The position numbers were made by a program, and so were the translations under genes. Positions 25 through 60,096 of a stretch of 64,000 nt of DNA are shown here, one piece after another. Position 1 is the stretch's first letter. Each line of letters starts with the position of its first letter. The stretch covers positions 84,940,001-85,004,000 of the forward strand of contig OZ024744.1 in the NCBI GenBank assembly GCA_964016885.1, in the 5' to 3' direction. The notes beneath the pieces are model-generated. The model saw only the letters and a list, made by a program, of their open reading frames with translations, had not been told where the DNA came from and did no database searches. The DNA is from Eledone cirrhosa. Lineage: Eukaryota.

Positions 25-100
25 TTGCCTCGTCTGACGAACGAATGAAGACGTTTCTTTTGTATTCGCCTCATTCGGGAAACCTCTGGTAATGAGGTAA
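25..100 (+). ncRNA. Type I hammerhead ribozyme, canonical core
   Basis: Stem I ttgcctcgt/atgaggtaa; CTGACGA 34-40; stem II cgaatga/tcattcg; GAAA 79-82; stem III cc-tct-gg; predicted cleavage after GTA at 91. Confidence 0.85.
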
Positions 101-326
101 TTATATTGTATTGATTTTTATACATTATATATATATATATATGTGTGTGTGTAGGAGGTGAGTTTTATTGTAGTACAATAAAGCAATGCAGATATCGGAT
201 AAGAAGCACTCTACAATTTGTAGGACTGGAGTATATACATATATATATATATATATATATATATATATATATATATATATATATATATATATATTTAGTT
301 ATGTAATAAACAACATAAGGCAATTA

Positions 327-386
327 TTCCATTTACCAGTGGTTTCTTAAAAGGAAAAGATTTTGCTTTCAATCCTCAGGATGAAA
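327..386 (-). ncRNA. Type I hammerhead ribozyme (family B)
   Basis: Minus strand reads tttcatc CTGAGGA ttgaaagcaaaa..ttttccttttaa GAAA cc-act-gg TA aatggaa. Confidence 0.8.
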
Positions 387-617
387 AAATCCTGGTCTGT
401 TTATTGAATTTGGATTTTAAAAACTAAAATTGAATCTATATGAAAGTGAGCCTGGAGAAGGAAGAAGGAAAGGAAAAATAAAATAAAACTACACATGCGA
501 ACACACACACAAAAACCCAAAAAGCATACATACACACACACACACACACATATATATATATATATATATATATATATGATATTAAATAAATGGAAACTAT
601 ATTTATAAAACCATATT

Positions 618-683
618 TATTTCGTTATATATATTTCAGGGATATCATATTAACAATATGTTATGCCGTCTTCAGACAAAATA
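618..683 (-). ncRNA. Type I hammerhead ribozyme (family A)
   Basis: Reverse complement of the motif at 851-916. Confidence 0.75.
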
Positions 684-850
684 CAATATAAACAGTCTTA
701 TAAATAAATAAATACGACATACCTTTCAATCACCTTGCATTTGGGAGGTTGATTTGGTAGTAAAGGATATTGTGGACAGTTGTAAAAAGAAAGAGATAAA
801 GAGAGAAAGAAAGAGAAACGAAGAAAAAGAAGAAAAGACTGTTTATATTG

Positions 851-916
851 TATTTTGTCTGAAGACGGCATAACATATTGTTAATATGATATCCCTGAAA
901 TATATATAACGAAATA
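851..916 (+). ncRNA. Type I hammerhead ribozyme (family A)
   Basis: tattttgt CTGAAGA (859-865), imperfect stem II, GAAA (897-900), tatata, TA, acgaaata (stem I). Confidence 0.75.
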
Positions 917-1918
917 AATATGGTTTTATAAATATAGTTTCCATTTATTTAATATCATAAATATACTCCAAATACTTGTTGAGTGCTTTTATATCAGTTA
1001 TAAATATTTACTCGTTGTTAACCCAACAATTTAAATATAACTTTCCATGTATATATATATATATATATATATATATATACATATACATACATATATACAT
1101 ATACATACACTCATACATACACACACGCACACATATATACACATATATGTGTATATAAATACACACAAACACATATATACATACGCACATAAATATCAAC
1201 ACATCCATACATACACATACATATATACAACCACACACACATATATACACACATACATACACATAGAAACATAAATATAAAATACATATACATACACACA
1301 TAAACATACATATAAATATATATATATATATACACATATACATATATATATATGTGTACAAGCATACACATACACAAACATAGCCATACACACATACATA
1401 TACATACATACATACATGCACACAATCATACATATGTACACACGTACATACATACACATACATAAATGCATTCCTCTACATATTCACACACGCAAATAAA
1501 TATAAGAAAAAAAATATATATATATATATATAAAAAATTATTTGACAGCGATACAGAAGGCATCTAACTGGACAGACACGCGTGGTAAGTAATACACACG
1601 AATGCACGTATACATACGTACGTAATAGTAAATACATACACACACACACACATATATGTATACATACACACATACATATACATACATAGCTATATAATTA
1701 TAAACATACAAATACGTACATATCATAAACACGCACAACCAAATATAAACACACACACACATACATATATATAAATATATATATATATACATACACACAC
1801 ATACACATATACATGTGTGTGTGTGTAAAACTCAGTCTTAGATAATTCATATGAACCTTACATATACATATATATATAGTAGTAAAGTAATAAAGTAATA
1901 AGCAACATAAGGCAATTA

Positions 1919-1978
1919 TTCCATTCACCAGTGGTTTCTTAAAAGCAAAAGATTTTTCCGTCAATCTTCAGAATGAAA
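1919..1978 (-). ncRNA. Hammerhead motif (family B), cleavage site mutated to UG
   Basis: tttcatt CTGAAGA..GAAA ccactgg TG aatggaa; G17 violates the NUH rule. Confidence 0.7.
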
Positions 1979-2566
1979 AAAACCTGGTCTATCTACATAT
2001 ACATATATATACACACACAAATATATATATATATACATATATATACACATATATATACATATATATATATATATATATATATATATATATATACACACAA
2101 ATATACATACACATACACATAGGTATGTGAAGGGCAAGGCAAAAAGAATATATGGGGGGGGGGGGGCATAGGAAAAGGTGAAATATAAGGGGAGGTAAGG
2201 GAGAAAAAAATAAATATACAAGAGTACAGAACGTAGAATCATCAAAAAAAAAAACGTAGCAGAAGTAAAGAGCAGGAAAGGAGTTCAAGGCGGTTGATTT
2301 ATCATAGGAGTATCAATCCAGTTACAGATCAGATGCGATTTCAGATGAGGACAGCATCTGAAGATCTCAGTCTTTGAGTTAAGGCAAGCGGAAGTGGCTC
2401 TCAAGTTTAGCAAAATCCTATACTTTACCACAGAAAAGTATAGGATTTTGCTAAACTTGAGCTCCAATTCTAATATATATATATATATGTATATATATGT
2501 GTATATATATGTATATATATATATTTGTGTGTGTATATGTATGTATATGTAGAAAGACCAGGTTTT

Positions 2567-2626
2567 TTTCATTCTGAAGATTGAAGGAAACATTTTTTGC
2601 TTTTAAGAAACCACTGGTGAATGGAA
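2567..2626 (+). ncRNA. Hammerhead motif (family B), cleavage site mutated to UG
   Basis: CTGAAGA 2574-2580, GAAA 2607-2610, ccactgg, TG 2618-2619. Confidence 0.7.
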
Positions 2627-57300: not shown

Positions 57301-57481
57301 GGGGGTGGATTGGCAGTATCGGTAGAGGGTCGGACGCCATGCTTTGCAGCATAGAGTTGCCGCGCTTTATGATCTGAGTTGAAATCCCGCCGAGGTTAAC
57401 TTTCATCCTTACGGGGTCGATAAAATAAAGTACCAGTAATACACTGGGATAATTGCTGGCCTTGTGCCAAAAGTAGAAACA
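57301..57481 (+). mobile_element. SINE family 1 with TSD
   Basis: attataataagataa on both sides. Confidence 0.88.
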
Positions 57482-58124
57482 ATTATAATAAGATAACTAA
57501 TTCTCCATATAAATAAAGATACATGTCTGAATATATTTTCCCTAAATTAACGTTCAAGTGGTCTTCCTTTTCCATCTTCTTTAACAATTTTAGTTTGATA
57601 ATTTATATAGCTTCGTTACATTAACAATATTTTGAAAACATTCTCAATGTTGAACATTTTTGAATCCACAAATTATTCTAATCTCACAACTTGAAAATAA
57701 CATTTTCAACATCCTTCGTAACTCATATTTGTTTATATAAACAATCAATGCATATGCAACTTATTAATATATAGAGAGATATTTATATACATATAACCTG
57801 TCCTAATGTAATAAGATAAAAATACTTAAAACCATAAATCATCATATAATTTTATAACTCATAATTTAGGTAACAAAAATCTTTTCCCCCAAATTAACGT
57901 TATTCTTTTCTCTTACTCTTCCTTCCTTATCATAAATATTTAAATTTTCCATAGCGTCTAAAATAACGTTTTTTTAGCCCTTTAATATACACATCATTTA
58001 CATACTCATATTAATAATTTTAAATATCTGACTTTTCTCCTCTCTTCCCTTCACTTTCCAGGGATAACTTGAACCGTTAAGGTATATCATCCTTGGTCAT
58101 GTCAAATATTTATAAAACATTTTG

Positions 58125-58186
58125 TATTTTATCTGATGATAGCGTATCAAAATGTGTGGTACCCTTGAAATATATATAATAGAATA
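58125..58186 (+). ncRNA. Type I hammerhead ribozyme (family A variant)
   Basis: tattttat CTGATGA (58133-58139)..GAAA (58167-58170) tatata TA atagaata. Confidence 0.8.
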
Positions 58187-59243
58187 AATATGATTTTATA
58201 AATATAGTTTCAATTTATTTAATATCATTATATATATATATATATATATATATATATATATATATATATATATATATATATATATATATATATATATATA
58301 TATATATATATATATATATATATATATATATATATGCATTATTTAGTTCAGGTGTGTGCTGAGTGTAGGCGTGTAAGTTAGTGGGTGATTGGATGTATGT
58401 ATGTATTTTTGTGTGACAACGTCTACGTGAATGTATGTGTTCGTGTCGTATGCAGTGTAGTGCATAAACACACACATACACTCATTCTCCCTCTCTCTTT
58501 CTCACCACACACACAGAGTGACAAGCACATATATACACACACACATAGAGGGCATGTATCTTTATACAAAATGATATGTGGTCTACTTGTCTTCATTTCT
58601 ACTTCACAGCTGAGCGGGTTAGCAGAAGGAAGATGGATACGTCTACAGCTGTAAAAACACTTGTTTCAACAATATATATATATATATATATATATATATA
58701 TATATATATATATATATATATATATACACATACATATGTATGTATATATATATATATATATATATATATATATATATATATGTATATATATATATATATA
58801 TATATATATATATATACATACACATATCTATATATAAGTATTAAGTTTTACAATTGAACTAGTTTACGGGGCCCTTGCTGGGAAACAGAGAATGTAAGGC
58901 TCACAACCGAACAGACCTACCTGGTTTCAGTGTGGCGATGTTTTTGAAAACAGTATTCACCGTCTTTAGAGCTAAACACACACACACACACACACACACA
59001 CACACACACACACACACACACACACACACACACACACACACACACACACACAACCTCCTCCCCCATATATATTTATAATATATATATATATGAAATAAAT
59101 AGGATTTCGCTTCAAGCATAGCTTTATACAATATGTATAAATATTTCGTATATCCAAAGAAATACGGTTTTAGGAAGCCGTAGCTATGCAAACACTGGGG
59201 AGCTAACGCCCTCTGGTGATGTCCAGCAGAAGCAAGGGGGACA

Positions 59244-59287
59244 ACCGTCTATGCATTTCAGGCTTAACTGGCCTTCGTCAGGACGGT
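59244..59287 (-). ncRNA. Minimal hammerhead ribozyme (family I)
   Basis: Exact reverse complement of 59349-59392. Confidence 0.87.
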
Positions 59288-59348
59288 ACCTCCCACCGCT
59301 TGCGACTGCTGGACTAGAAGACAGGCGAAAATATATACGGTGGGATGG

Positions 59349-59392
59349 ACCGTCCTGACGAAGGCCAGTTAAGCCTGAAATGCATAGACGGT
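59349..59392 (+). ncRNA. Minimal hammerhead ribozyme (family I)
   Basis: accgtc CTGACGA aggc-cagttaa-gcct GAAA tgca TA gacggt; palindromic atgcat. Confidence 0.87.
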
Positions 59393-59622
59393 TGTCCCCC
59401 TTGCTTCTGCTGGACATCGCCAGAGGGCGTTAGCTCCCGGTGTTTGCATAGCTACGGCTTCCTAAAACCGTATTTCTTTGGATATACGAAATATTTATAC
59501 ATATATATATATATATGAATGTATATATAGTGTATTTTGCAATACACTGTATGCTTAATTAAAAGCATTTCGAAGACTTTGCGCTATTGTTTTAGAGTAG
59601 TGACAGTCTCACTTACTTTAAA

Positions 59623-59715
59623 TTTTCAGCAAACAGGGGAGATAAAGCTGACAGAGCTCTGTTTCGTACTAATTGGTACTTATCAATGCTAAGTACTCCA
59701 CCTGTTTGCTGAAAA
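59623..59715 (-). ncRNA. Hammerhead ribozyme with U3:A8 core (family J)
   Basis: Reverse complement of 60004-60096. Confidence 0.78.
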
Positions 59716-60003
59716 TCATGAATGTTTGATTCTTATAGAATTCTAGTAATGATCAGGAACTCATTATACAGAGCGGTTACGGTCAAGCAGAAATTGAAAA
59801 TTAGAATTGGTGCTCTGAAATAGCATAATTAATAGCATAATTAAGCATACAGTGTATTGCAAAATACACTATATATACATTCATATATATATCGCTATTT
59901 CAGAGCACCAATTGTAATTTTCAATTTCTGCTTGACCGGCAACCGCTCTGTATAATCAGTTCCTGATCATTACTAGAATTCTATAAGAATCAAACATTCA
60001 TGA

Positions 60004-60096
60004 TTTTCAGCAAACAGGTGGAGTACTTAGCATTGATAAGTACCAATTAGTACGAAACAGAGCTCTGTCAGCTTTATCTCCCCTGTTTGCTGAAAA
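60004..60096 (+). ncRNA. Hammerhead ribozyme with U3:A8 core (family J)
   Basis: agca TTGATAA (60033-60039) gtac-caatta-gtac GAAA cag-agct-ctg TC agct; 15-bp distal stem I. Confidence 0.78.

Follow-up and report, generated by a model that had tools for sequence, protein, structure and literature searches.

Dimeric hammerheads of Penelope-like elements (PLEs) have reportedly been described by Lunse et al. Minimal type I hammerhead ribozymes (HHRs) of PLEs are described as occurring in many families per genome, mostly in solo truncated copies, and as cleaving poorly even as dimers (Cervera and de la Pena 2014, PMC4209133). In the account of PLE clades by Craig et al. (2021; PMC8557442), DKT together with CxCx5C marks the Hydra clade and DKG together with Cx4CxxC the Neptune clade, and the supplement includes Hydra-1_Obim of Octopus bimaculoides with its preference for (TA)n. 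PLE hammerheads (PMC4209133) and (TA)n-targeting Hydra elements in Octopus (PMC8557442) are both already published; the kind of sequence described here is known, but its scale does not appear to be in print. Literature searches brought up nothing on hammerheads of octopus or other cephalopod genomes, and the words 'ribozyme' and 'hammerhead' are absent from the main text of a 2026 repeat annotation of Octopus vulgaris.

The motifs in the window, i.e., the whole 64-kb stretch of Eledone cirrhosa DNA analysed here, and in further loci of the same genome resemble the PLE hammerheads described in PMC4209133 in their type I form, terminal repeats, large number of families, predominance of solo truncated copies, opposite-strand pairs 100–700 bp apart, palindromic loop III, U3-A8 covariant and extra base after A9. 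They differ in number (about 3x10^5 estimated here, compared to 2,000–9,000 in the genomes counted there with different descriptors) and in form, as most have a loop III of 4–10 nt, and of 65 unique motifs only 14 show the canonical G10.1-C11.1 pair, while position 4 of helix II is a C.C mismatch in 24. With the Hydra clade as described in PMC8557442, our Hydra-like elements share a C-terminal endonuclease (EN), DKT, the CxCx5C linker, a canonical HHR, (TA)n insertion (Hydra-1_Obim being likened by description), an inverted 5'-truncated arm and a one-sided tail, whereas several subfamilies here have 1.2–1.9-kb microsatellite-rich 3' regions, one of them with a second, dead HHR. With the Neptune clade (PMC8557442), our Neptune-like elements share a predicted RT, a predicted C-terminal GIY-YIG, and tandem copies with one HHR per unit; as to the clade's linker (Cx2-5CxxC) and DKG, family M has both, the linker after the RT being Cx4CxxC, family N has DKG in an ORF piece that excludes the linker region, and the family of the HHR at 6702 has DKS instead. 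The inverted arms differ by a tail that measures 60–66 nt in two Neptune-like families here, compared to 30–40 bp in PMC8557442. Finally, some putative non-coding units here, of 300–530 bp with one type I HHR and with tandem or more-than-unit copies, resemble the metazoan non-LTR retrozymes (repeats of 150–500 bp with one HHR per unit) described by Cervera and de la Pena (2020; PMC7229834) and Li et al. (2026; bioRxiv 10.64898/2026.07.22.740005), and axolotl HHR_Amex2 likewise has U.U mismatched at the foot of helix II; unlike those retrozymes, the units here are mostly dispersed fold-back copies in (TA)n.

Hammerhead motifs in the window and in the genome

The sequence-only reading had reported about 25 complete or near-complete type I HHRs. 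All 26 of its sites are hammerhead-like, but just 13 are intact by a descriptor requiring CUGANGA or UUGANAA, GAAA, UH and helices I–III:

24, 324 (-), 618 (-), 851, 3948, 6702 (-), 13084, 27694, 42422, 54461, 58125, 59244 (-) and 59348: the intact type I HHRs

The shuffle control proposed in that reading came out clearly, with 13 intact motifs, whereas 50 dinucleotide shuffles of 200-bp blocks averaged 0.06 and never gave more than 1; the strictest version of the descriptor passed 5 window motifs against 0.03. By eye, the core boxes are intact and the helices weak or mismatched at six sites (14414, 14700, 25145, 31290, 59623 and 60004), and seven sites have a core substitution (H17G at 1919 and 2567, A6G at 9203 and 47425, G8U at 22549, A6C at 20762, and A6U at 46609). 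The hammerhead-shaped motifs in the window are real and the earlier count was generous. Further, the 26 motifs shrink to about 20 insertions, since inverted arms of single insertions had been counted two or four times (327/1919/2567/3951, 618/851, 59244/59349 and 59623/60004); they fall into 13 families. In a strict six-order scan, requiring a 4-bp helix III and directly adjacent strands, the only block order in the window was CGS. Non-circularly permuted (SGC/CSG) hammerheads were sought in the same scan, which misses looser forms, and were absent from the window, and the random sample gave two overlapping A/T-rich matches.

(TA)5 lies within 300 bp 3' of 25 of the 26 sites, but TA-bounded islands of up to 500 bp enclose just 13 of them. 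In a genome sample, (TA)5 lies within 300 bp downstream of 57 of 78 motifs, compared to 17% of random positions. These 78 intact motifs come from a sample of 64 spread 10-kb stretches (639 kb of random genome), in which shuffled and reversed controls gave none. The sampled density, about one per 8 kb, suggests approximately 3x10^5 intact-core motifs when extrapolated to the 3-Gb genome, and exact family patterns recur 816 to 27,663 times, with no occurrence in the reversed control. The axolotl record, the largest in the main texts of the published counts compared, is 120,000 copies in a 28-Gb genome, which our estimate, made for motifs of all kinds, would top. Within the window, intact motifs occur once per 4.9 kb on both strands together (for a given transcript, one per 7 kb on the plus and one per 16 kb on the minus strand), not once per 2.5 kb as had been proposed. 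Nor is the window a hammerhead hotspot or a special high-density landscape, as 12% of resamplings of random stretches reach at least 13 motifs per 64 kb.

Coding elements and short non-coding units

Hydra-like elements and families A and B are represented in the window by the following features.

308..4110, both arms: fold-back insertion of family A, a Hydra-like PLE, with a microsatellite-rich 3' region between its HHRs
324-389 (-) and 3948-4013 (+): outer HHRs of family A, intact
1916-1981 (-) and 2564-2629 (+): inner HHRs of family A, H17G
2288..2425 (-): family A ORF, C-terminal end, sharing 98% identity with an ORF fragment of genomic locus L271
585..1043: fold-back of the family B 3' end, HHRs 618-683 (-) and 851-916 (+)
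7622-7801 (+): Hydra-like endonuclease remnant (34%, E 9e-9)
7622..9394 (+): element comprising this remnant, then a family B 3' region, then an A6G HHR (9203-9268)
13084..13148 (+): family B HHR, intact
44209..46221: Hydra-like PLE remnant, ORF pieces 44493-45246, inverted 5' arm
54110..54560: fold-back of a family B relative, intact-core HHR 54461-54520 (+), masking by the inverted arm predicted
54845..58226 (+): decayed Hydra-like PLE whose 5' part (54845-55370) is inverted, with ORF pieces as far as about 56600, a 3' region of 1.5 kb and HHR 58125-58186

The L271 fragment has the CxCx5C linker and a YVG motif. Family B HHRs lie downstream of Hydra-like ORFs in loci L080 and L087 and in several of L010-L033, and the endonuclease remnant at 7622-7801 is probably continuous with the family B 3' region that follows it. 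In the remnant at 44209..46221 an HHR with a long helix II is split into halves (from about 46140; also at 21240-21420).

Three features are Neptune-like.

6543..7670 (-): young, 5'-truncated Neptune-like PLE, ORF end 6954-7670, intact HHR 6702-6746
24878..25347: fold-back of family N, atypical U3:A8 motif from 25145 with helix I of only 2 bp; Neptune-like ORF in L277
27694..27731 (+): intact U3:A8 HHR, 3'-terminal in a Neptune-type PLE that has its ORFs in L272-L276

The HHR at 6702-6746 has an extra base after A9 and the G10.1-C11.1 pair, and lies about 200 nt beyond the stop codon. The same distance of about 200 nt separates stop codon and HHR in an element with a 1,049-aa ORF, which has one HHR per 4.07-kb tandem unit and whose motif is found, with at most one core mismatch, in 17 of 19 loci selected by their ORFs (L035-L053). 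The HHR at 27694..27731 has 6,009 identical copies in the genome. An inverted arm is present upstream in 14 of 25 family M loci.

The remaining features are half-motifs, non-coding units and motifs of other families.

24..101 (+): type I HHR with intact core, inverted mate about 2.5 kb upstream of the window (L083 7489-7614), no partner ORF found
13670..13870, 20935-21119, 24585-24774, 42719-42864 and 52573-52756: fold-backs of half-motif family K
14414..14470 (+): family L HHR with intact core boxes but mismatches in helices I and II
14700..14750 (+): family C HHR, boxes intact, weak helix II (U.U plus 3 bp), helix/loop III of 14 nt
20762 (A6C) and 46609 (A6U): degenerate copies of family C; half copies at 46230-46396
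22407..22687: fold-back of family D, whose HHR 22549-22641 (+) has a long helix II and G8U; another copy at 25540-25720
31221..31489 (-): family E unit, U3:A8 motif 31313-31357, bulged helix II
42422..42477 (+): family G HHR, intact, no partner ORF found
47422..47563 (+): HHR with A6G and a 105-nt insert in helix II, no other copy among the fetched loci
59140..59495: non-coding fold-back of family F, HHRs 59244-59287 (-) and 59348-59393 (+)
59554..60237: fold-back of family E, U3:A8 motifs 59623 (-) and 60004 (+), closing pair of helix I mismatched

The window copies of family K have only the GAAA-helix III-UH half, with full U3:A8 motifs in L042 and L071; the 3' half of family C occurs in 27,663 exact copies genome-wide. 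Family L forms direct, retrozyme-like units of 420–470 bp, the family F tail recurs upstream at about 310–340 bp, and the family E fold-back at 59554..60237 has 70% similarity to the 310-bp tandem HHR array of L105. These three families (F, E and L) look like non-coding units of the retrozyme type.

PLE ORFs adjoin families M, N and A, and the ORF-linked families are I, M, N, A and B; in summary, Penelope-like ORFs are connected with four families and with one family of half-motifs, and less closely with a fifth. Families C, D, G, H and K and the 47425 motif yielded no partner ORF. YxDD, DKG/DKT/DKS and YIG/YVG motifs stand in this order in L073, L078 and L272, consistent with C-terminal EN+ PLEs encoding a putative RT followed by a putative GIY-YIG endonuclease. 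Because Pfam returned no RT or GIY-YIG domain in these PLE proteins, the clade names rest on motifs rather than on a tree or reference alignment, and are given as Hydra-like and Neptune-like. The proposed community of PLEs and retrozymes targeting (TA)n is borne out by the several families tied to ORFs; describing the elements as non-coding was only partly right, since several are the 3' ends of coding PLEs.

Helices and the origin of the motifs

Stem covariation among copies, which the sequence-only reading had named as a check, is present in helix II. In family B, 95.5% of cells are paired, with 31 double changes against 12.4 in shuffles, which ignore relatedness, and 1–14 in slid alignments; within this family alone and uncorrected for relatedness, helix II has double changes at 7 of its 10 pairs and helix I at 1 of its 8. 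In 54 variants the comparison gave 56 against 4–10. Folds of monomers were no stabler than those of shuffles (z -1.6 to +0.6), and the RNAalifold consensus mispairs helix I. Of the 78 genomic matches, 50 have a palindromic loop III, a trait that had been claimed for many motifs. A TATA box just upstream of the ribozyme was considered as a general feature and rejected (2 of 90). Core substitutions are suggestive, at most, of a possible A-to-G editing signature (6 of 9 in the random sample and window; 11 of 23 when all unique cases are taken), and most instances of H17G go back to a single change inherited within family A.

It is very probable that the motifs are type I hammerhead sequences at PLE 3' ends and in short non-coding units, and they are probably mostly inert cargo. 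The Neptune-like and Hydra-like families place predicted HHRs at the 3' ends of PLEs: full and tandem copies have the order ORF, HHR and (TA)n on the same strand, 5'-truncated copies are also seen, and the PLE traits of terminal-repeat HHRs and of tandem and inverted 5'-truncated copies with a tail are present. The short units are likely PLE-mobilised retrozymes. Reverse transcription would start at the 3' end and usually abort early, so that short fragments, many of them fold-backs, stay behind in (TA)n, and this is the likely reason why motifs accumulate. By analogy with published PLE work, the ribozyme would cut the precursor RNA of tandem source copies into single units, acting as a dimer in those with a palindromic loop III, and the GIY-YIG nuclease with its Cys linker would select (TA)n targets. 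Dispersed copies would be mostly inert passengers, since they presumably lack a same-strand partner, are masked by an inverted arm or have decayed.

Alternatively, most islands might be self-contained retrozymes or SINE-like units that spread via circular RNA, rather than broken ends of coding PLEs. The tails of families F, E and L recur upstream at about 310–470 bp, true tandem arrays of 310 and 528 bp are present in L105 and L107 but not in the window, and a search for an ORF partner of family C, a very abundant one, found none; however, ORF links exist for families I, M, N, A and B, and a recurring tail was seen at just 6 of the 44 anchors of F, 3 of the 6 of E, 3 of the 14 of L and 0 of the 78 of C, leaving this reading unlikely. 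The possibility of chance matches in AT-rich, hairpin-rich repeat DNA is close to negligible. A looser descriptor, allowing one core mismatch without a score threshold, does give 4.6 matches per shuffle, a few A/T-only false positives arose, and the Rfam check that had been recommended yielded no hammerhead among the best 150 of 435 window matches, where microsatellite and miRNA artefacts dominate (elsewhere in the genome, Rfam Hammerhead_1 at its gathering score gave 18 matches among 74 scored candidates). The final descriptor, the exact family counts and the covariation described above all speak against chance, which is refuted for the 13 intact motifs and possible only for single-copy oddities such as 47425.

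Host transcripts

The sequence-only reading had further proposed that intact hammerheads at this density could fragment host transcripts, be they intronic or read-through, thereby shaping the transcriptome. Such predicted cutting is likely not taking place, and we regard the proposal as improbable. The extrapolated number of intact cores favours it, as do the 8 of 13 window motifs with a predicted folding penalty of merely 2–10 kcal/mol in 400-nt flanks, a helix III of the monomer type in some motifs (3951, 24), and the avoidance of introns by Xenopus retrozymes described in a preprint. However, the other 5 of the 13 are masked by 56–92 kcal/mol in predicted fold-back hairpins, the canonical G10.1-C11.1 pair is rare, and published PLE hammerheads, as described, are inactive as monomers and weak as dimers. 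Orientation was compared in 40 of 80 selected stretches, all 40 from myosin gene bodies, with 24 motifs. There was no sense depletion, with 11 sense and 13 antisense motifs (p=0.84), a low-power comparison in which the 95% CI of the sense share is 26–67%, while SINEs of these stretches, taken as a control, did show a skew (16:34); and 8 of the 11 sense motifs have an inverted mate. Since the test is small, solo motifs number 3 sense vs 6 antisense, and the gene-body density of one per 16 kb is half the random level, which also favours cutting, there may be mild selection against intronic motifs.

In a bolder version, this would be the densest hammerhead population described (about 2-5x10^5 intact cores in dozens of PLE/retrozyme families), and a real fraction of solo sense intronic copies would cleave pre-mRNA co-transcriptionally, perhaps via a C.C-mismatch helix II fold or cross-copy dimers through palindromes held in common (UAUAUA, for example), and the brakes would be A-to-I editing and the fold-back arms; we consider it a long shot. 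Because the young families comprise thousands of identical copies and intact source ORFs, they make two questions testable, namely the in vivo role of PLE hammerheads and selection against intronic ribozymes. What has been seen to date favours cargo that is mostly inert.

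Hammerhead motifs in the window and across the genome

Hammerhead-family sequence is present at each of the 26 coordinates where the sequence-only reading had placed a complete or near-complete type I hammerhead ribozyme (HHR). Of these, 13 are intact, six have the conserved boxes but weak helices, and seven carry a core substitution. A strict descriptor found five motifs in the window against 0.03 expected (60 block shuffles), and our final descriptor, which tolerates mismatches in the helices, one additional base following A9, a covariant U3:A8 and a long helix II, found 13 intact-core motifs against 0.06 (50 shuffles), plus five with one core mismatch. 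Four of these five (1919, 2567, 9203, and 47425) are A-to-G changes on the element strand; such changes could come from RNA editing, though the numbers are too small to tell. Since fold-back insertions duplicate motifs, as a self-comparison of the window indicates, the 26 motifs represent about 20 insertions of 13 families. A (TA)5 run lies within 300 bp after 25 of the 26, whereas islands of at most 500 bp hold only 13; simple repeat makes up about 30% of the window. Hammerhead was absent among the best 150 of 435 Rfam matches in the window, and 18 of 74 scored candidates elsewhere in the genome matched RF00163. Single-motif folds were no more stable than shuffled sequence, and a strict scan of the window found no permuted hammerheads of the type described in PMC10085705.

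Stem covariation was found in family B, the Hydra-like Penelope-like element (PLE) family that includes the 13084 motif. Among 22 variants, 95.5% of 440 cells were paired, double changes occupied 31 cells against 12.4 in shuffled and 1–14 in slid controls (which ignore relatedness), and 7 of 10 helix II pairs covaried. A larger set of 54 unique variants gave 56 double changes against 4–10 in controls, with relatedness not removed. The consensus drawn by RNAalifold itself for this family recovered helix II and mispaired helix I. Position 4 of helix II is a C.C mismatch in 53 of the 54 unique variants and in 24 of 65 unique motifs overall, including the window motifs 13084, 42422, and 58125, and this retained mismatch may be a site of tertiary contact.

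The window covers positions 84,940,001–85,004,000 of one contig in an assembly that comprises 2,995,841,428 bases in 1,796 contigs; a SINE characteristic of octopus suggests that the genome is of octopod type. In a random sample of 64 10-kb stretches at round coordinates spread over the chromosomes (639,400 bases), the final descriptor found 78 intact motifs, belonging to recurring families, and none once the sequence was shuffled or reversed. Loop III is palindromic in 50 of them, the core is U3:A8 in 13, and (TA)5 lies within 300 bp downstream of 57, compared with 17% of random positions. Extrapolation gives 365,000 intact motifs genome-wide (bootstrap 234,000–529,000), or 319,000 (225,000–417,000) with one 11-copy array counted once, totals that lean low because the descriptor misses family C (the 14700 family). 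The complete 27694 motif has 6,009 exact genome copies, and the 3′ parts of families A, F, C, and N have 3,924, 1,200, 27,663, and 816, respectively, each reversed control giving 0. Resampling reached at least 13 motifs per 64 kb in 12% of draws, so the window is not the special landscape it was taken for; HHR abundance is striking, yet typical of this genome. The largest count that we met for comparison is 120,000, given for axolotl in PMC7229834, and a density record is provisional because descriptors differ between counts.

Elements carrying the motifs

The motifs are real and of an established kind: earlier publications describe hammerheads in PLEs, U3-A8 cores, motif pairs on opposite strands, and insertion targeted to (TA)n. 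Our literature searches turned up no publication on hammerheads in cephalopods, and the main text of an Octopus vulgaris repeat paper (PMC13282606) does not contain the word "hammerhead."

The 6702 motif, of a young Neptune-like family, lies about 200 nt past the stop of an ORF ending in GIY-YIG, whose best 150 genomic matches are 96–100% identical. Elsewhere in the genome, this family has a 1,049-aa ORF (stretch L073) and tandem units spaced 4.07 kb with one motif apiece (L075). A decayed element, with an ORF bearing DKT and CxCx5C, terminates in the 58125 motif, and this motif family likewise stands at the end of related elements in L080 and L087 and in several stretches among L010–L033. The motifs of the Neptune-like families M (27694) and N (25145) come after ORFs that contain DKG and RYLDD. 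Clade labels follow motifs in Craig et al., because Pfam recognized no domain in any of these PLE ORFs. No driver was found for families C, D, G, H, and K or for the 47425 motif.

In three fetched stretches (L273, L276, and L277), the RT frame of families M and N is preceded by another reading frame out of phase with it, which suggests a putative frameshift or intron. At window 25110–25235, family N has a U3:A8 core, with a helix I of 2 bp and, in helix III, a long insert; directly ahead of this core stand a TATA-like run and TCAGT, the latter presumably initiator-like or splice-acceptor-like.

In a minority of copies of families F, E, and L, the tail recurs upstream at about 310–470 bp, resembling retrozyme units, and tandem HHR units typical of that class occur in three fetched stretches.

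Tandem HHR units in fetched stretches and other repeats in the window
L105 245–3387: tandem HHR units, about 310 bp, 11 copies
L107 6633–7768: tandem HHR units, 528 bp, 3 copies
L317 5694–6205: tandem HHR units, 467 bp, 2 copies
Window 31770–39360: decayed Helitron (Helitron_like_N and PIF1 domains)
Window 33655–34294: 69-bp coding repeats within the Helitron
Window 17598–19342, 47600–48010, 51207–51870: non-LTR retrotransposon fragments, which we take to be of the restriction-like-endonuclease type
Window 5030–6088: apurinic-endonuclease LINE fragment, with a 155-bp inverted end at 6343–6497
Window 11410–12120 and 61820–63700: two minisatellites, one of about 59–60 bp and one of about 22-bp units

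Hammerheads and host transcripts

The suggestion that HHRs this dense could fragment read-through or intronic transcripts is unsupported. Any transcript meets one strand, and the intact window motifs divide into nine on the plus and four on the minus strand. With 400-nt flanks, 5 of the 13 are predicted to pair with an inverted arm, so that a hammerhead-like fold would cost 64–92 kcal/mol (for three arm-paired motifs, 56–70 kcal/mol already with 150-nt flanks), compared with 2.4–9.8 kcal/mol for the other eight. In 40 stretches from 13 myosin genes (386,250 bases, half of a designed set of 80 stretches), with gene bodies drawn from ordered myosin-head exon matches rather than annotation, 11 intact motifs were sense and 13 antisense (p = 0.84, CI 26–67%). 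Of the 11 sense motifs, 8 have an inverted mate; solo motifs number three sense and six antisense, and an abundant SINE segment in the same gene bodies (L288–L327) 16 sense and 34 antisense. Motif density there is 1 per 16 kb, half the random-sample level. Together, orientation and density reveal no strong purging, while mild selection is possible. Intron avoidance is described for Xenopus retrozymes (Li et al., 2026, bioRxiv 10.64898/2026.07.22.740005).

Proposed spread of the motifs and of microsatellite DNA

The elements run from ORF through hammerhead and tail to (TA)n, with tandem, shortened, and fold-back copies. Hydra elements are described with canonical hammerheads and (TA)n insertion, inverted 5′-truncated arms with tails as typical of PLEs, and Hydra-1_Obim is listed with (TA)n preference in the supplement (PMC8557442). 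Here, a tail accounts for the difference between inverted arms: about 66 nt in family M and 60 nt in the 6702 family. Hammerheads in PLE repeats were proposed to cut precursor RNA, and are dimer-dependent and slow in vitro (PMC4209133; PMC6765202). We infer that reverse transcription would be primed at (TA)n, start from the 3′ end and mostly halt or fold back early; because it would usually end early, the ribozyme near the 3′ end would be over-represented, and dispersed copies would then decay.

In the Hydra-like family A (3951), the ORF end lies at the center of a palindrome (308–4029) and shares 98% identity with a CxCx5C-bearing ORF fragment in L271. Two hammerheads (window 308–4110) flank a microsatellite-rich stretch of ~1.4 kb, degenerate (TG)/(TA), which recurs at other loci (among them L159, L268, and L271). 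The inner hammerhead has H17G in all eight unselected copies and the outer H17A in 12 of 12; judged by these cores, the inner is predicted to be dead and the outer intact. (CA)n tracts also occur in the 3′ region of family M. Read-through capture may have enlarged the family A stretch, and such an insert would spread microsatellite DNA.
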